Positions 8,618 through 16,773 of a stretch of 64,000 bases of DNA are shown one piece after another. Source of the stretch: Escherichia coli (GTDB taxonomy: Bacteria > Pseudomonadota > Gammaproteobacteria > Enterobacterales > Enterobacteriaceae); NCBI RefSeq assembly GCF_044324785.1, contig NZ_CP172127.1. One strand, 5' to 3'. Made by a program: the position numbers and the translations under genes. The notes under the pieces are model-generated. The model worked only from the letters and a program-made list of their open reading frames with translations. It was not told the DNA's origin and did no database searches. How positions within the stretch are numbered: position 1 is the first letter of the stretch; each line of letters begins with the position of its first letter.

Positions 8618-8977
8618 ATGGCGATGACTCAGGGGACAAAAGCGGGGCTGGTCCTGAAGGGCGTTAAGGTGGCCGGCATGTGGCTGTCGGGCCTTATTGC
8701 CATGATGATTCTGGCCCTCCTGGTGGCTGATACGGGCATGCGGCATACGCAGGAAGTGGAAGCATTACGGCTCTGGCTCCACGAGACACGTTTCGGATGG
8801 CTGGGGTGGCGGGTGTGCCTCTACGGTGCGCTGGCATGGGGATGCCGGAAAATCTGGCGTGCGCCGGGGTTCAGACCGGAATACCGCCGTCCCTTTGCGC
8901 GGATTTGTCTGGTCAGTGCTCTGTTTGCGTTACTTTGCGAGTACAGCATTTTTTTCGGACCGGGGGCTGAACTGTGA
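8618..8977 (+). CDS. small inner-membrane protein of T4SS operon
   Basis: about 120 aa, two hydrophobic helices; stop overlaps traG-like start. Confidence 0.4.
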   Translation: MAMTQGTKAGLVLKGVKVAGMWLSGLIAMMILALLVADTGMRHTQEVEALRLWLHETRFGWLGWRVCLYGALAWGCRKIWRAPGFRPEYRRPFARICLVSALFALLCEYSIFFGPGAEL

Positions 8978-10476
8978 CCACGAATAACTATCTGGAACAC
9001 TTTCTGACCCTGCTGGGCTGGCTGGTGAATAACGGCCTGTGGGATCTGCTGACGGGGACGGGGCTGTTTGCCCTGCCACTGGCCTTCAGGGTTATCGGGA
9101 TCTGGCTGAAAGTGCGGGAAGAGGGGGCGGATGAGGGAAATAAAGGGATGCTCTCACTGCCCCGCATTGAGCATGCCCTGTATGGTGCATTTTTTGTGAT
9201 GGTGGCCTGCTGTGTGCCGCTGGTACAGGTGACGCTGGACACGCTGAAATTTGATCGCAGCCGTGCCCAGACCTGCGGTGTGTGGACACCGAAAGCACCC
9301 GGTGATACCGGGTACAGCGGGGTGATCAGCAGCCTGGGTGACAGGACAGCGGCCGCCCCGGTGTGGTGGGTGGTGGTGCATAAACTCTCCAAAGGTGTGA
9401 CGCAGGCTGCTGTGGCGTCCATTCCCTGCCGGCCGGATATACGGCAACTGCGTTTTGAGGTGCAGCGGACATTCATTGCGAACCGGGCGCTGGCCGACGA
9501 GCTGCAGGACTTCACCAACGACTGTTACTCGCTGGCGCTGTATCAGTGGAAGCAGCGTGACCAGGGGATGACGAAGGACAGGAAGCTGCTTTCGGATATC
9601 AGCTGGATTGGCAGCAGTACGTTCATGCAGGGTGACTACGGGACACTGCAGTCGAAAATGCCACGTGCGGCATTCCCGTGGAATAGCGCCCGTGACAGCG
9701 GCCGTCCGGATACGGGACGGGGGGGTTATCCCACATGCCGTGAATGGTGGAGTGACAGTAGTGTCGGGCTGAAGAAGCGGGTGACAGAGGAAGTTGATGA
9801 AGGACTGTGGTTACGTATTTCGGCGGCAATGAAAATGCTGGGGAACGCGCAGGCGAACTACCAGGAGGAAATCATCAAACGTCTGGTGAGTCCGGCGAAC
9901 CTGACCCTGTCACAGGGGGGGGAGGTGTACCGTGGCTATGGCGGTAATGCAGATATGACGGCGGCGAATGCGGTCACGCGTGCAGCAGGCACGGCGGGTT
10001 CTGCCGTTGCTAGTCTGGCAGCGTTTCCGGCGTTTGATGCGATGCGGCAGGCGCTGCCGATGGTGCAGAGTATTCTGCTGATGGCGGTGTATATCATGCT
10101 CCCGTTGATTCTGGCGTTTGCGGCGTATGAATTCAGCACGCTGATCACACTGACGTTTGTGGTGTTTGCACTGAATTTCCTGACGTTCTGGTGGGAGCTG
10201 GCGCGGTGGCTTGACAGCTGGATGCTGACGGCCTTGTACAGTTCGGACACGCATTCCCGAGTGAACATGATGGGGCTGCAGAACACGTCGGATGATATCA
10301 TCATGAATTTTGTGATGGGCACGATGTTTCTCGTATTACCGGCGGTGTGGCTGGGAGCATTATCCTGGGCTGGAGTTAATATCGGACAGGCTATTTCTGA
10401 GGGATTCAATCGAGCAGGGCATGTTACACAACAAGCAGGCCAGCATGCTGGAAGTTTTGTTAAAAGAATAAAATAA
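8974..10476 (+). CDS. TraG N-terminal domain family protein (mating pair stabilisation-like)
   Basis: 500 aa polytopic membrane protein; organisation matches TraG_N proteins of GI-type T4SS. Confidence 0.7.
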   Translation: MTTNNYLEHFLTLLGWLVNNGLWDLLTGTGLFALPLAFRVIGIWLKVREEGADEGNKGMLSLPRIEHALYGAFFVMVACCVPLVQVTLDTLKFDRSRAQTCGVWTPKAPGDTGYSGVISSLGDRTAAAPVWWVVVHKLSKGVTQAAVASIPCRPDIRQLRFEVQRTFIANRALADELQDFTNDCYSLALYQWKQRDQGMTKDRKLLSDISWIGSSTFMQGDYGTLQSKMPRAAFPWNSARDSGRPDTGRGGYPTCREWWSDSSVGLKKRVTEEVDEGLWLRISAAMKMLGNAQANYQEEIIKRLVSPANLTLSQGGEVYRGYGGNADMTAANAVTRAAGTAGSAVASLAAFPAFDAMRQALPMVQSILLMAVYIMLPLILAFAAYEFSTLITLTFVVFALNFLTFWWELARWLDSWMLTALYSSDTHSRVNMMGLQNTSDDIIMNFVMGTMFLVLPAVWLGALSWAGVNIGQAISEGFNRAGHVTQQAGQHAGSFVKRIK

Positions 10477-10489
10477 CTACCTGTTTTTT

Positions 10490-10527
10490 ATGGCGATATT
10501 TGTCATGAATATCGCCATATTTTTATT
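10490..10527 (+). terminator. rho-independent terminator after traG-like gene
   Basis: perfect 11-bp stem ATGGCGATATT/AATATCGCCAT followed by T-run. Confidence 0.55.
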
Positions 10528-10822
10528 CTGGCGTTTTGTAAGGGCTACCACTCCATTCTCTACTATCAATAGGATGATGATCTCGATAAAGAGGATGAAA
10601 GGGATTGAACATCGCTTCATTCGAATCTTTTTCATTTGAATCGCATATATCAGATAAAACAGATGTTAAATAATTGTTTTCTTTCTTATTGACACGATGA
10701 ACCGTGTGTGGACCAGAATCCGGTAAAACCGCACAGATAGCCTTTTTCAGCAGGCGGCTGAAAGTCCATGGTGTGTCAGAGGTTTTGCAACTCCACATTG
10801 CTTTTTCTGTTTCATTGGTCAT
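10523..10822 (-). CDS. hypothetical protein (AT-rich cargo)
   Basis: 99 aa from ATG at 10822 preceded by strong SD AGGAGG; no recognisable family. Confidence 0.35.
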   Translation of the reverse strand: MTNETEKAMWSCKTSDTPWTFSRLLKKAICAVLPDSGPHTVHRVNKKENNYLTSVLSDICDSNEKDSNEAMFNPFHPLYRDHHPIDSREWSGSPYKTPE

Positions 10823-12179: not shown

Positions 12180-12299
12180 GCAGAAATCGATCACAGGCGC
12201 TATTGATATGCAAAAGTATTGCTTGAGTGTCTGAGGTCGGTTATTTTACGTTTCACAAGAAAGAAGCACTTAAACAGAAACTCACAGTCCATATTCCTT

Positions 12300-12326
12300 C
12301 ATCCCCGGTTACGGGGATTTTTTTTA
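12300..12326 (+). terminator. rho-independent terminator
   Basis: TCCCCG-GTTA-CGGGGA hairpin followed by T8. Confidence 0.5.
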
Positions 12327-12896
12327 GCTGTTGTCTGGGGAGGGAAGGGGGCTGTGTCGGGCTGGGAGCTGTAAGGCTGCGATTGTCCGGGTGATGTCTG
12401 AACATGCGGTATGTTTGCGTTAAACAAGGGGGGAGTATGTGGATACTGATTTTCTGGCTTTCAACACCATATTCAGTGTCATCCAGTGTTGCCAGACAAC
12501 CAACGCTTGCTGTTCATTCTCAGGAGTTCGCTGGCTGAGATGAAGAAGGTGAATGTCGGAGAACTGACCCTGAGGGGGATCTGTGTCTCAAAAGAATAGT
12601 GGGGTAGAGGGAGCGAACCAGGCTGTTTTATCAGGATGTGATTCTGGAGAGTCCGCTCGCCGCAGTCCGGCGACCGAACGGTAGTGAGCGAGCGGACGAG
12701 GAAGCGGAACGTCACAGTTCTTTCATAATGCACCTACGCTGTGTGGTTACATGGGTAAAGGATGAATATCACCATTCTATATCTGTTTCTGAAAAACAGT
12801 TTCGCTTGTTGCCTGTCATTGCCGGCTGGCGTTAGCATACAGAGGCGGTATTATCCCCTGTGATATTACGGGTTATTTTGTTTTGCTCTGTAAGAC

Positions 12897-12924
12897 CTGG
12901 CCAGCTATTATGCTGGCCTTTTTT
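12897..12924 (+). terminator. rho-independent terminator
   Basis: GGCCAGC/GCTGGCC stem followed by T6. Confidence 0.45.
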
Positions 12925-12929
12925 GTGGT

Positions 12930-13247
12930 TTATTGTTCGCAGTCCAGCATTGCAAATAATTTTCGTTTCTGTTCCTTCACATACTCAACATCAACAGTAC
13001 AATCCAGATAACTTAACTCATCTTCTGTCCAGGCATTGATGGATTCTTTTATTCGGTGTGTCACATCCGGTGTGAGTATGTCGCGCATTTTCTCAATGGT
13101 ATCCCGGCTTATTTCTCCTCGTGGAGATTCAAGCAGAGGAATTACTGCCTGATGTCCCGGAGGGAGTATAAGACGTAATTCATATTTAAGTGTTTCGTTG
13201 AGTAAACGACAGAAAGCACTGTATTTCTCTTTCCGGGTACTGTTCAT
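12930..13247 (-). CDS. hypothetical protein (AT-rich two-gene module, distal gene)
   Basis: about 105 aa from second ATG with SD GAAGGA; no family recognised. Confidence 0.4.
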   Translation of the reverse strand: MNSTRKEKYSAFCRLLNETLKYELRLILPPGHQAVIPLLESPRGEISRDTIEKMRDILTPDVTHRIKESINAWTEDELSYLDCTVDVEYVKEQKRKLFAMLDCEQ

Positions 13248-13342
13248 CGTTTTATTCCTTCTCATTACTGTGCATGGTGTAAGATTAAAGCGTTTTGCAA
13301 AAGATGTACAAGTTGTTTTTATCCGGATTTAATATCATGGAC

Positions 13343-13996
13343 TCACTTTTCTTTTGTGTCAGTGGGTACTGCATTGTTTATTAGCCACGGCAATTGTTGA
13401 TTACCCTGTATTTTTCGGATGTAGTTATCAATAATATCTTTTGTTTCATCACTATTATTATAAAAAGATTCAAGTGTGCATATAAAATCATCATTTAATG
13501 CAGGTAGCAGGATTATGTTTTTTACTGTGAACCGGATATGACGATTACTCAGTGTTTTTAAATAAAGTTTCTTTCCAATAACAGGATTTACATTGAAAAT
13601 ATTGTAACAGATTTCCACTGTGTTTTCTGAAGGTGCGTATAATACGTATACCGGATATTTTTTATGAAGTTTTATCAGGCAATTTATAAAGTCTAAGGAA
13701 TTTGTTTGTTTTGCTTTTTCTCGCATCTTATTTACGTGTTGCGAAAAGAAATATGCTTTTGTAAATATAAAAAGAAAAATAAGCGCAGTGTTTAACAGAA
13801 ATGTGATGGCAATTGTTATAAATAACCATTTACCTGAACCTGTATTAAAGATATGGGATGAAAGATACCCACCTGTCAGCAACAAAAATATAAATAATAA
13901 TGACTGCATTTTTTCCTGGTTGTTTATTGATGATTTCAGACACAGAAATATAACAACACATGCAAAGCTCCAGAAAAATATAACAGCAAAATCCAT
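13343..13996 (-). CDS. hypothetical membrane protein (N-terminal 3 TM helices plus C-terminal soluble domain)
   Basis: about 217 aa from ATG with SD AAAGGTGA; very AT-rich codon usage unlike flanking DNA. Confidence 0.45.
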   Translation of the reverse strand: MDFAVIFFWSFACVVIFLCLKSSINNQEKMQSLLFIFLLLTGGYLSSHIFNTGSGKWLFITIAITFLLNTALIFLFIFTKAYFFSQHVNKMREKAKQTNSLDFINCLIKLHKKYPVYVLYAPSENTVEICYNIFNVNPVIGKKLYLKTLSNRHIRFTVKNIILLPALNDDFICTLESFYNNSDETKDIIDNYIRKIQGNQQLPWLINNAVPTDTKEK

Positions 13997-14160
13997 ATTA
14001 TCACCTTTTGTCTGACAGTTCATTTGTTGATGCTATCACGATATTCGCGATGCGGTAAATATATCAATATGTTGGTTTATTTGTGTAATACATTATTTCC
14101 CATATGCCATAAATCAGTCTGTTGACGATAGCTTTTTTCTTTTGTTATTCTGTTCCCGCA

Positions 14161-14470
14161 TTAACTGTCGCTTCGGCGACCACCAATGTTCCATGAGGCC
14201 TGTGAGGAACGCCTTCGGGTGGCCCATGTCGCTCCGGCGACCACCAATGTTCCATGTGGCCTGTGAGGAACGCCTTCGGGTGGCCCACGTCGCTCCGGCG
14301 ACCACCAATGCTCCATCTGACCAGTGAGGAGCGCCTTCGGGTGGTCAGTTTTACACCTCCGTAGCCTGAAAGGAGCTGTGCGTGCTGATGGGATATGTTT
14401 CCGGAAGTACGGGTAAATCTGCACACCTTTGCGAGCAGATGTCACCACGGTTTACGTGATGATGAAGGCA
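14161..14470. repeat. composite repeat copy 1: three tandem ~61-bp units (14166-14226, 14227-14287, 14288-14347) plus ~120-bp unique tail
   Basis: Directly visible; about 95 percent identical to copy at 16463-16773; each unit has GTCGC-TCCG-GCGAC hairpin and conserved GAGGAACGCCTTCGGGTGG core. Confidence 0.9.
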
Positions 14471-15074
14471 TTCCGGATTTCGTCCGGTACTTTTACTTTT
14501 TCTCAGCAGACTTTCATAAAAAATGCTTTATGGATCTGCGTCTTAACATATTTTCTGACTTTCCGCATAAGCTTCTTATGACTGTGCGCACGGCATAAGG
14601 CCATTTGAAATTTGGCCGCTTGCGTGTGTACGTGGAGTTTGAAGCAGTGCATGCGTCACTTTTGTCGGCGTTCACGCTGACAAAGTGACGCATGAACGTC
14701 GACTCAACGAACCCGCATAAACAGGCTCTTCACGGGATGTTTTTTAACATTTGAAGAAGTGACCTGACGTGATCGTTTTTTTTCAACTTCATTCTGTTTC
14801 GTAGTGACGTCTCTCCGGTAAAACTTCCGGAAAAACGTCAGTCAACAGAATATCATTGTTTTTTAAGGAGTTTAATGTAGTGAGATGCCGAATCGGCGAT
14901 ATATCTGACAGGCAGATATGTCGGGGGCGACCTTCAGAGGTACAGTTAATTCTGCGGCCGGTTAAACTAACCGGCTTGACACCCCGCAAAACCTGAACAC
15001 TTTGCGTTACCCTGACGCACAGGCACTCACTCACCGAAGGAACGTAACGAAGAACCGTGTCGTCAGGTGAAATG

Positions 15075-16462: not shown

Positions 16463-16773
16463 TAACTTGTCGCTTCGGCGACCACCAATGTTCCATGTGG
16501 CCTGTGAGGAACGCCTTCGGGTGGCCCATGTCGCTCCGGCGACCACCAATGTTCCATGTGGCCTGTGAGGAACGCCTTCGGGTGGCCCACGTCGCTCCGG
16601 CGACCACCAATGCTTCATCTGACCTGTGAGGAGCGCCTTCGGGTGGTCAGTTTTACACCTCCTGAGCCTGAAAGGAGCTGTGCGTACTGAAGGGATATGT
16701 TTCCGGAAGTACGGGCAAATCTGCACACCTTTGAGAGCAGATGTCACTGCGGTTTTCCGTGATGATGAAGGCT
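16463..16773. repeat. composite repeat copy 2 (same orientation as copy 1)
   Basis: Same three-unit tandem structure and tail as 14161-14470. Confidence 0.9.

Follow-up and report, generated by a model that had tools for sequence, protein, structure and literature searches.

The two neighbouring minus-strand genes analyzed here, ORF1 and ORF2, are probably not an obligate two-gene module, judging from the loci fetched. They are carried by the variable region of an ICEEc2-type (MPF_G) ICE of Escherichia coli and are placed between the end of TraG_N (10476) and the first of the STAXI repeats (14166) in the 64,000-nucleotide stretch of DNA under analysis (the window). Our preferred reading, which we put forward tentatively, is that two unrelated and independently mobile cargo genes became neighbours by chance, and that ORF1 may act as a lone barrier or exclusion factor by a mechanism that we infer. 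ORF1 belongs to a real, so far unannotated and rare family of AT-rich genes that moves horizontally.

Gene structure and base composition of the locus

Both ORFs are almost certainly real genes. At the local base composition the chance of finding 217 open codons is ~2e-8 (ORF1) and that of finding 105 open codons ~9e-4 (ORF2), and each gene has diverged homologues under purifying selection. The Shine-Dalgarno sequence AAGGTGA is found 4 nt before the ATG of ORF1, and AAGGA is located 8 nt upstream of the ATG of ORF2. The start assigned to ORF1 by PGAP is 13909, which corresponds to a shorter version of 188 aa. The features of the locus are listed in Table 1.

Table 1. Features of the ORF1-ORF2 region in window coordinates
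Feature	Position	Strand	Description
ORF1	13343..13996	-	217-aa inner-membrane protein; based on ORF and Shine-Dalgarno sequence, 24 family representatives, alignment, AF2 (pLDDT 85.7)
ORF1 membrane anchor, residues 1-78	13763..13996	-	TM1 3-20, TM2 33-50, TM3 58-78 (AF2 helices); predicted N-out/C-in
ORF1 cytoplasmic domain, residues ~98-208	13373..13705	-	Helix, five-strand SH3-like small barrel, two C-terminal helices
ORF2	12930..13247	-	105-aa soluble protein; PHROG 1853
ORF1/ORF2 spacer, 95 nt	13248..13342	-	Contains the Shine-Dalgarno sequence of ORF2 (AAGGA, 13256-13260)
Weak promoter-like site	13362-13334	-	At the ORF1/ORF2 junction
Region upstream of ORF1	13997..14165	-	Extends to the STAXI repeats; Shine-Dalgarno sequence 14001-14007; promoter-like hexamer pairs at 14087-14058 and 14067-14038
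GC-rich hairpin GGCCAGC-N6-GCTGGCC	12899..12918		12 nt beyond the ORF2 stop codon

Both genes are on the same strand, with separate Shine-Dalgarno sequences and a weak internal promoter-like site. Co-transcription of ORF1 and ORF2 in this ICE is possible, since the two co-directional genes are separated by only 95 nt that contain no terminator. The T-run of the hairpin beyond ORF2 lies on the plus strand. Thus, the hairpin is a convincing terminator for plus-strand transcripts only, and for transcription of ORF1 and ORF2 it is a weak stop at best.

The original prediction had described two co-directional genes at 12930-13996, the first coding for three N-terminal transmembrane (TM) helices plus a soluble domain of ~130 aa and the second for ~105 aa. 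Minus-strand ORFs were confirmed at these positions, the AF2 helices and charge counts of ORF1 agreed with the proposed architecture (soluble domain of ~120-130 aa), and ORF2 comprises 105 aa. The location between the T4SS core and the repeats was likewise correct, and the same element indeed carries further defence and anti-defence cargo, namely ArdA, a type III R-M system and relE/higA remnants. The claim that both genes are strongly AT-biased, unlike anything nearby, and compositionally foreign on a mobile element had to be restricted to the membrane protein gene. ORF1 has a GC content of 0.303 (GC3 0.275) and is the sole place in the window below 32% GC. ORF2, with a GC content of 0.412, falls in the range of its neighbours, such as the integrase-domain gene (0.407), ArdA (0.439) and the type III R-M genes (0.36). 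Low GC is common to the whole ORF1 family, as all homologues are 11-24 GC points lower than their own flanks.

The ICE region was present in 35 of 5426 E. coli genomes. The slot occupied by ORF1 and ORF2 tolerates insertions, either ccdAB together with an MTase and an HNH gene, or Tn7/integron sequences. No remnant of hok or TraT was found in the window at the slot where sister ICEs carry hok, and no Zur box with at most 3 mismatches was detected for the neighbouring L31B gene.

Association of ORF1 with ORF2

ORF1 and ORF2 had originally been regarded as a membrane effector and its partner, which together would constitute one toxin-antitoxin, toxin-immunity or abortive-infection system. Co-direction, the short spacing and the lack of a predicted terminator between the genes fit this explanation. 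Moreover, a 1351-bp query across both genes aligned at a coverage of at least 80% in all 35 matching E. coli genomes, the host element holds other defence and anti-defence cargo, and a hok/gef addiction gene stands beside the ORF1 homologue in sister ICEs. The distribution of the two families speaks against it, since, among the loci fetched, they co-occur nowhere beyond this one ICE lineage. Diverged ORF1 homologues (25-43% identity) were available from 11 distinct loci, and none of these (0/11) had a relative of ORF2 according to tblastn or to an ORF2-family HMM on six-frame translations, the best E-value being 1.6. Conversely, none of three prophage loci with ORF2 homologues contained a relative of ORF1. 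In the sister ICEs, which have the same gene order, the slot of ORF2 is filled by the hok/gef gene.

Reciprocal frameshifts also argue against a functional pair. Three assemblies (L006-8) have a frameshift in ORF1 but an open ORF2, and the reverse, a frameshifted ORF2 beside an intact ORF1, was seen in GF60 and in copy 1 of TUM1886. The latter frameshift is not a sequencing error, because GF60 and TUM1886 copy 1 share the same truncated RefSeq protein. A toxin-antitoxin system would not be expected to lose its antidote and retain an intact toxin, and for an obligate toxin and antidote one of the two states should be lethal; here both asymmetric states exist. The genes neither overlap nor are translationally coupled, and the gap in GC content between ORF1 (0.30) and ORF2 (0.41) argues against a common origin. 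Finally, PADLOC assigned none of its families to ORF1, ORF2, six ORF1 homologues or one phage homologue of ORF2. A single system of effector and partner is accordingly highly improbable, and the plausible-looking two-gene defence module was struck from the list of candidates.

ORF2 itself matched phrog_1853 with an E-value of 7.3e-18, its residues 5-102 aligning with positions 60-156 of a profile that is longer than ORF2 (159 positions). It shares 37% identity over its full length with orf6 of the Stx2 phage 86 (tblastn to Stx2 phages, E = 4e-15). In an alignment of four members W73 and E77-L-S-Y80 are conserved in all four, and the adjacent L-D-C is missing in one allele. ORF2 shares the conserved W...EELSY motif with PHROG 1853. 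The prophage members of this family are found in antisense orientation between holin and endolysin in lambdoid prophages, whereas ORF2 is located on an ICE beside a membrane protein gene. A dN/dS of 0.27 was calculated between the phage homologues. With a distribution sampled via PHROGs and tblastn of phages and plasmids, we assign ORF2 with low confidence as a prophage-type moron that has its own ribosome-binding site and is independent of ORF1.

Architecture and distribution of the ORF1 family

An exhaustive phmmer search revealed 24 representatives of the ORF1 family. They share 25-49% identity, have a length of ~198-228 aa and were found in Enterobacterales only. A C-terminal motif is kept across the family alignment. 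Searches with ORF1, with an alignment of its C-domain and with six homologues against Pfam, NCBIfam, PADLOC and PHROGs gave no significant match; Bax1-I, aligned to the TM region with 0.0015, and F0F1 subunit b, with 0.03, were at noise level. A literature search by protein accession was also without a match.

Structure prediction, which had been proposed as a check, gave confident AF2 models of ORF1 (pLDDT 85.7 and 85.4), in which three hydrophobic helices are followed by the soluble domain. Sixteen full-length family members were inspected for positive charges. The sums of lysine and arginine residues were 0 for the N-terminus, 49 for loop 1, 8 for loop 2 and 78 for the segment after TM3, and the resulting positive-inside pattern was kept in every member (16/16). 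The cytoplasmic domain contains the conserved residues E128, N132, L149, R152, F178, Y192, I196 and P203-W204. Its modelled small SH3-like barrel with helices found structural relatives only within its own family; at the level of the fold alone, it resembles small SH3-like, Tudor, PWWP and Sm-like beta-barrels. The architecture, topology and family are very probably as described here. An Enterobacterales-restricted, unannotated family is documented with a confident structural model, a predicted topology and a map of genomic contexts, which makes it cheap to test.

Two resemblances were dropped. The family member P0023 contains the stretch 'KKFYCKTLTGKTVYITP', which is similar to the first hairpin of ubiquitin, MQIFVKTLTGKTITLEV, and gave a summed E-value of 0.003 to polyubiquitin. 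This similarity is a short hairpin coincidence and was rejected because the fold of the ORF1 family is not a beta-grasp. The Serratia homologue P0033 was named a MscS-type mechanosensitive channel by JGI; the combination of a pore-lining TM3 and an Sm-like beta domain, which defines MS_channel, was not found.

The genomic settings of ORF1 homologues are diverse. A second E. coli ICE lineage keeps the gene order of the ICEEc2-type element; its T4SS proteins are ~89% identical, but ORF1 shows 42% and the integrase-domain protein 43% identity. The idea that ORF1 is a special fast evolver (41% compared with 92% for L31B) was abandoned, as its neighbours in the module, the integrase-domain protein (43%) and a small protein (45%), are equally diverged. 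Further homologues are located in the Ter/urease island of EDL933 and in a secG-tRNA island, there directly behind a P4-type integrase. Solo islets, either tRNA-adjacent or flanked by housekeeping genes, were found in Salmonella, Serratia, Entomohabitans and Intestinirhabdus. At these solo loci ORF1 is the only protein of the window with a homologue, and no T4SS or ICE genes lie within ~8 kb. An apparent tandem paralogue beside the Intestinirhabdus homologue was a spurious ORF across the RtT repeats of a tRNA operon. Homologues in unrelated housekeeping contexts had been named in advance as evidence against a role in defence, exclusion or toxicity. Such flanks do occur (argA-recD, ghrA-phoH, proP-lplA), but the homologues mostly reside in AT-rich islets beside tRNA genes. 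In two E. coli ICE lineages the ORF1 family has long belonged to the accessory module, and elsewhere it occurs as a single-gene islet, often tRNA-adjacent.

Selection on ORF1 was followed at different depths. Between two STEC alleles a dN/dS of 0.40 was obtained (0.27 for the C-domain, 0.56 for the TM region), and deeper comparisons of the whole gene gave ~0.2-0.35. Close ICE alleles exhibited values of ~0.7 for ORF1 and ~0.4 for ORF2, and the former could point to relaxed constraint. ORF1 is frameshifted in L006-8, in APEC 102026 and in a paralogue of NCTC9112; it is therefore dispensable for the ICE. These observations bear on the explanation that neither gene has a selected function in the ICE and that both are H-NS-silenced xenogeneic passengers drifting to pseudogenes in a region that serves as a cargo dump. 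The dN/dS values of the close alleles, the independent frameshifts in both genes, the extreme AT content of ORF1, which is typical of silenced DNA, and the insertions accepted by the slot would agree with it. Evidence against it is the family-wide purifying selection on ORF1 with length and motifs kept across genera, the low dN/dS of the ORF2 homologues, and the synteny kept across ICE lineages that have diverged to ~43% identity. Furthermore, the region is at least 99% identical in 32 of the 35 complete genomes, among which intactness was checked individually for APEC 102026. We consider a pure passenger status of both genes unlikely.

Possible roles of ORF1

According to the preferred reading of ORF1 as a lone barrier or exclusion factor, the protein would act alone. 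Its three TM helices, oriented N-out/C-in with almost nothing in the periplasm, would fix the domain of SH3-like barrel and helices on the cytoplasmic side of the membrane. ORF1 would be expressed from the resident element and may use this domain at the inner membrane to capture or block a component of the machinery that brings in foreign DNA. Its role would then be that of an exclusion or barrier factor against the entry of conjugative or phage DNA and not that of a toxin. Architecture, mobility and genomic company hint at such a function, although defence genes were present within 10 kb in only 3 of ~9 distinct contexts, and on balance we regard it as rather doubtful. More specifically, ORF1 might define a new family of barrier proteins, encoded by single genes on enterobacterial ICEs and tRNA islets and anchored in the membrane, that have an undescribed cytoplasmic fold and block the entry or establishment of incoming DNA, either as the missing exclusion function of MPF_G elements (PAPI-1/ICEclc/ICEEc2-type) or as a new stand-alone anti-phage or anti-conjugation factor; this is distinctly unlikely. 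Should ORF1 turn out to serve exclusion or defence, a compact system made up of one gene and equipped with a new cytoplasmic domain would be gained.

Superinfection-exclusion proteins of prophages and other morons expressed by lysogens, such as SieA and SieB of P22, Imm of T4 and gp15 of HK97, offer a comparison. Like these, ORF1 is a single small inner-membrane protein encoded on a mobile element, presumably partnerless, AT-rich, sporadic and fast-evolving. In contrast to them, ORF1 has no homologue among 50,697 phage records or in PHROGs.

ORF1 could also be pictured as a stand-alone abortive-infection or membrane-disrupting effector, in which the barrel senses a phage cue and the TM helices oligomerise and depolarise the membrane. 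Cap15 of CBASS is an effector composed of TM helices plus a small barrel, and ORF1, which has a TM bundle at its N-terminus and a small beta-barrel behind it, may resemble it in architecture. The sporadic distribution in AT-rich islands, one homologue located 0.6 kb from a type I-F cas operon and R-M systems in two ICE contexts would also suit an effector. Unlike Cap15, ORF1 has no signalling partner; a cyclase or other sensor gene was adjacent in none of the ORF1 contexts. In addition, no family member matched PADLOC, whose library includes Cap15-type models. Such an effector function is very unlikely.

As a further possibility ORF1 was considered as an entry-exclusion factor of the MPF_G ICE, analogous to TraS/Eex, which would be made by recipients that carry the ICE and whose cytoplasmic domain would recognise a donor T4SS protein, e.g. 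TraG_N, and block DNA entry. Known exclusion factors are mostly small proteins of the cytoplasmic membrane with unrelated sequences, the specificity regions in the TraS/Eex paradigm are cytoplasmic, and the exclusion gene adjoins the gene of its T4SS target, a TraG/VirB6 homologue (PMC11493245). PAPI-1, likewise an MPF_G ICE, shows exclusion, and its determinant has not been identified (PMC5297154). No exclusion determinant is known for the widespread MPF_G ICE family, and ORF1 might, if this assignment were true, supply one.

Several properties of ORF1 are in accordance with the paradigm. Like TraS of F and Eex of SXT/R391, it is small and conjugative-element-borne, is predicted to reside in the cytoplasmic membrane (three TM helices with a family-wide positive-inside pattern), has a cytoplasmic C-terminal region, is strongly diverged between related elements and forms a transcription unit separate from the T4SS operon. 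Its slot is conserved in two ICE lineages despite an identity of 42%, and the two co-resident ICEs of TUM1886 carry different ORF1 alleles, A and D. Other features differ from TraS/Eex. The folded cytoplasmic domain of ORF1 is larger (~120 aa), sequence similarity is lacking, and the Pfam TraS and NCBIfam exclusion models did not match ORF1 even at E <= 1-10. ORF1 does not stand beside a gene of the VirB6/TraG type but ~2.9 kb from TraG_N (13343 versus 10476), on the opposite strand and with three genes in between. Most family members are not confined to conjugative elements but occur solo, away from any T4SS or ICE gene. The family is restricted to ~24 enterobacterial clusters, so that the MPF_G ICEs of Pseudomonas, Klebsiella and others lack it, and in some ICEs ORF1 is frameshifted.

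No co-variation was found between the hypervariable tail of TraG_N (types 1-4) and the allele of ORF1 (A, B or D). Allele A occurred with tails 1 and 4, allele B was seen with either tail 2 or tail 3, and allele D was also combined with tail 3. In contrast to ORF1, a small gene at 10523-10822, convergent with traG_N, co-varies with the TraG_N tail. Taken together, it is improbable that ORF1 is a TraS/Eex analogue.

At ~10330-10700 the C-termini of TraG_N and of the small convergent gene face each other, and a hypervariable cassette spans both. This cassette is a more promising lead for exclusion than ORF1.

Gene anatomy and host element

Two minus-strand genes, a predicted inner-membrane protein gene (ORF1) and ORF2, were confirmed at the locus (table). 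For ORF1 the frame 13343-13996 is the best reading; a shorter start called by PGAP at 13909 would cost the first transmembrane helix (TM1). At the composition of ORF1, 217 open codons would occur by chance with a probability of ~2e-8. A 95-nt gap, in which no terminator was predicted, lies between the two genes; a weak promoter-like site extends across the ORF1 stop codon. The original prediction of a very AT-rich two-gene module holds for ORF1 (30.3% GC, GC3 27.5%), the sole place below 32% GC in the 64-kb window, but not for ORF2 (41.2%), which resembles the integrase-domain gene (40.7%), ArdA (43.9%) and the R-M genes (36%). The module is thus one extreme gene beside an ordinary cargo neighbour.

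E. coli chromosomes matched the window at 99.8-100%, APEC E19035 best. Of 5426 complete E. coli genomes, 35 contain the 1351-bp region, in every case on the chromosome. According to RefSeq annotation the matching locus is an integrating conjugative element (ICE) of the TIGR037xx/PFL_4703 type (MPF_G, ICEEc2/PAPI-1-like). Its T4SS genes are followed by TraG_N, small genes, type B L31, the present two genes (labelled "hypothetical proteins") and an integrase-domain gene, and then by ArdA, LPD29/DUF1281 proteins, type III R-M, relE/higA remnants and a site-specific integrase. Four STAXI RNA/ssDNA motifs, with the integrase-domain gene between them, make up the "repeat region". STAXI and EFASI also adjoin the ORF1 homologues of STEC islands (L023, L024). 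The non-coding stretch 14500-15066, which lies 5' of the integrase-domain gene and holds the EFASI-like motif, shares 87% identity with the EDL933 island (L024), while its flanking genes have diverged far more.

L31B shares 92% identity with its counterpart on the EDL933 Ter/urease island and keeps its slot across sister ICEs; a search of the whole 64-kb window at <=3 mismatches revealed no Zur box. The stretch between L31B and ORF2 (12180-12929, ~750 bp) is gene-free in the annotation of the best-matching record. Elsewhere this slot holds a 62-aa ORF called by PGAP (WP_000264911; apparently disrupted in the window), hok/gef in sister ICEs, or an insertion of ccdAB, an EcoRI-family methyltransferase and an HNH gene in TUM1886 and GF60.

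Features of the locus and of compared loci (window positions unless a locus is named)
Feature	Position	Strand	Remarks
TraG_N gene	8974-10476	+	3' end in hypervariable cassette
Hypervariable cassette	10330-10822; also L002, L004, L036, L039, L040		facing C-termini of two convergent genes
Small gene convergent with traG_N	10523-10822	-	partner in hypervariable cassette
Type B (zinc-independent) ribosomal protein L31 gene	11916-12179	+	no L36B partner
Terminator-like hairpins closing 12180-12929	12857-12872 and 12899-12918	+	predicted
GC-rich hairpin just 3' of ORF2	12899-12918		T-run on + strand
ORF2	12930-13247	-	105 aa; AAGGA 8 nt upstream of ATG
ORF1	13343-13996	-	217 aa; AAGGTGA 4 nt before ATG
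STAXI motifs, four (Rfam RF01728)	14166-14461 and 16468-16773	+	62-69 bits, above gathering score
EFASI-like motif	14878-15031	+	46 bits, below gathering score of 51
ORF2-family genes, lambdoid Stx and EDL933 prophages	L021 4989-5303; L022 4995-5309; L035 5013-5285		antisense in lysis cassette

ORF1 and ORF2 are not a conserved pair

The genes had further been proposed to encode a membrane effector and its partner acting as one system. In the loci of ORF1 homologues no ORF2 relative was detected by tblastn or by an ORF2-family HMM on six-frame translations (best E = 1.6). A second ICE lineage of E. coli and the STEC islands derived from it (JE86-ST05, 2013C-3033, NCTC9112, EDL933 OI-43/48) share the gene order TraG_N, small gene, L31, X, ORF1 homologue, STAXI, integrase-domain gene. 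Slot X, filled by ORF2 in the window, always contains hok/gef there and never ORF2. Moreover, asymmetric loss occurs in both directions. Three independent assemblies carry a 1-nt deletion in ORF1, with ORF2 open but 6 aa shorter; GF60 and TUM1886 carry a 1-nt deletion in ORF2, yielding an identical truncated RefSeq protein, with ORF1 intact. Thus, two real genes are present without conserved pairing, and the proposed system dissolves. A two-gene toxin and partner is now very improbable.

At the sequence level, ORF2 has prophage affinities. It matches PHROG 1853, a function-unknown family (E = 7e-18), and shares 36-38% identity with proteins encoded by Stx2-converting phages and by an EDL933 prophage; searches of Pfam and of PDB sequences gave no match. 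In all three prophage contexts examined the homologue stands alone on the opposite strand with holin on one side and endolysin on the other, an unusual, conserved moron position for this family. The dN/dS between two phage homologues is 0.27. Two phages carry another unknown gene (213-268 aa) in convergent orientation to the ORF2-family gene.

The ORF1 protein family

A word-indexed search with ORF1 returned near-identical E. coli proteins only. Exhaustive phmmer revealed 24 representatives with 25-49% identity, nearly all of 198-228 aa and aligning end to end, from E. coli, Salmonella enterica (including subsp. salamae), Serratia, Atlantibacter, Intestinirhabdus, Entomohabitans, Pseudocitrobacter and Raoultella. 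All are annotated "hypothetical". They share the N-terminus MDRSLLFFY and the C-terminal block WYVLY.PS.N..EIG.N...PVIGKKFY.KTL.GR...F.P ... IC.L..FY.....TK..V.NYI..IK.....PW. ORF1 is a real protein of a real, unannotated family.

AlphaFold2 on the family alignment (pLDDT 85.7, pTM 0.74) agreed with the predicted three N-terminal TM helices and soluble domain. TM3 runs on as a long helix to residue ~97, followed by a short helix, a five-strand small barrel and two helices; the C-domain modelled by itself gave the same fold (pLDDT 85.4). Lysine and arginine residues, summed over 16 full-length members, numbered 0 at the N-terminus, 49 in loop 1, 8 in loop 2 and 78 after TM3. Therefore, the family is predicted to be N-out/C-in, with essentially no periplasmic exposure and a cytoplasmic conserved domain. 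Outside the family, neither a sequence relative nor a fold relative was found, Pfam, NCBIfam, PHROG and PADLOC contain no model for it, and a literature search by protein accession found no paper. Consequently the family is undescribed, and ORF1 remains an uncharacterised accessory membrane protein.

The homologues lie between argA and recD (Serratia sp.), a DUF4440 gene and a lacI-type regulator (S. marcescens), proP and lplA with a tRNA 200 bp off (Entomohabitans), or ghrA and phoH with a tRNA at 450 bp (S. enterica subsp. salamae). Others adjoin phoH (metagenomic enterobacterium), are close to a DUF1440 gene and isrN (Salmonella), directly follow a P4-type integrase in a secG-tRNA island (E. 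coli), or follow a tRNA/RtT operon with a type I-F cas operon 0.6 kb off (Intestinirhabdus, L018). Each has a GC content 11-24 points under its flanks, and ORF1 is the sole window protein with a homologue in the Serratia, Salmonella, Entomohabitans, Intestinirhabdus, metagenomic and secG-island loci. ORF1 is thus mobile, AT-rich and island-borne, and in two ICE lineages it keeps a stable position within the accessory module. The Intestinirhabdus islet is flanked by a type I-F CRISPR array as well as the cas operon; a 213-aa ORF beside its homologue (L018 7117-7612) was rejected as an artefact spanning three RtT repeats after the tRNA gene.

Between two STEC alleles dN/dS was 0.40 for the whole gene, 0.27 for the C-domain and 0.56 for the TM region; deeper pairs gave 0.18-0.35 for the whole gene. 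Purifying selection is evident from such ratios. Very close ICE alleles gave ~0.7 (40 substitutions, mostly one recombination tract). That both genes are silenced passengers, with no function under selection in this ICE, seems unlikely, and a stand-alone Abi-type membrane effector decidedly more so. We tentatively favour a role in which ORF1 would act by itself at the inner membrane, excluding incoming DNA or forming a barrier to it, with the cytoplasmic barrel domain serving for recognition. If ORF1 proved to be a novel exclusion or defence factor made up of a single gene, its interest would exceed its present modest standing.

Entry exclusion and the TraG_N tail

The most attractive specific idea, that ORF1 is the entry-exclusion protein of the ICE, is nevertheless improbable. 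Its size and membrane location fit exclusion factors, most of which are small proteins of the cytoplasmic membrane with unrelated sequences, and TraS and Eex provide a precedent of targeting donor TraG via cytoplasmic regions (PMC11493245). PAPI-1 shows exclusion (index ~298) with no identified determinant (PMC5297154). Furthermore, the slot is kept although the accessory module has diverged to ~43% identity, as against ~89% for the T4SS proteins. However, traG_N lies ~2.9 kb off on the opposite strand with three genes intervening, a T4SS is nowhere near most family members, and ORF1 alleles do not co-vary with the sole hypervariable part of TraG_N.

The first 440 residues of TraG_N are 99.8-100% identical among ICEEc2-type variants, and the last ~45 fall into at least four unrelated tail types, with a fifth in the JE86 lineage. 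Tails 1 and 4 accompany ORF1 allele A, tails 2 and 3 accompany allele B, and tail 3 is also combined with allele D. In the convergent small protein the N-terminal 27 aa are constant (MNNETEKAMWSCKTSDTPWTFSSLLKK), and the C-half (68-99 aa) is swapped in step with the TraG_N tail. The pattern suggests that this cassette determines specificity, perhaps in exclusion or in the recognition of mating pairs.

T4SS proteins of JE86-ST05 (L036) are ~89-90% identical to those of the window. Its downstream accessory module has the same gene order, but the small protein, the ORF1 homologue and the integrase-domain protein are only 42-45% identical. The ICE is modular, and this contrast suggests that a module was exchanged long ago at the end of traG_N. 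The TUM1886 chromosome (NZ_CP128970.1) is host to two members of this ICE family (L038/L040, L039; ~0.95 Mb and ~5.04 Mb), which differ in TraG_N tail (3 vs 4), ORF1 allele (D vs A), ORF2 (frameshifted vs intact) and cargo. TUM9803 likewise carries two ICE copies.
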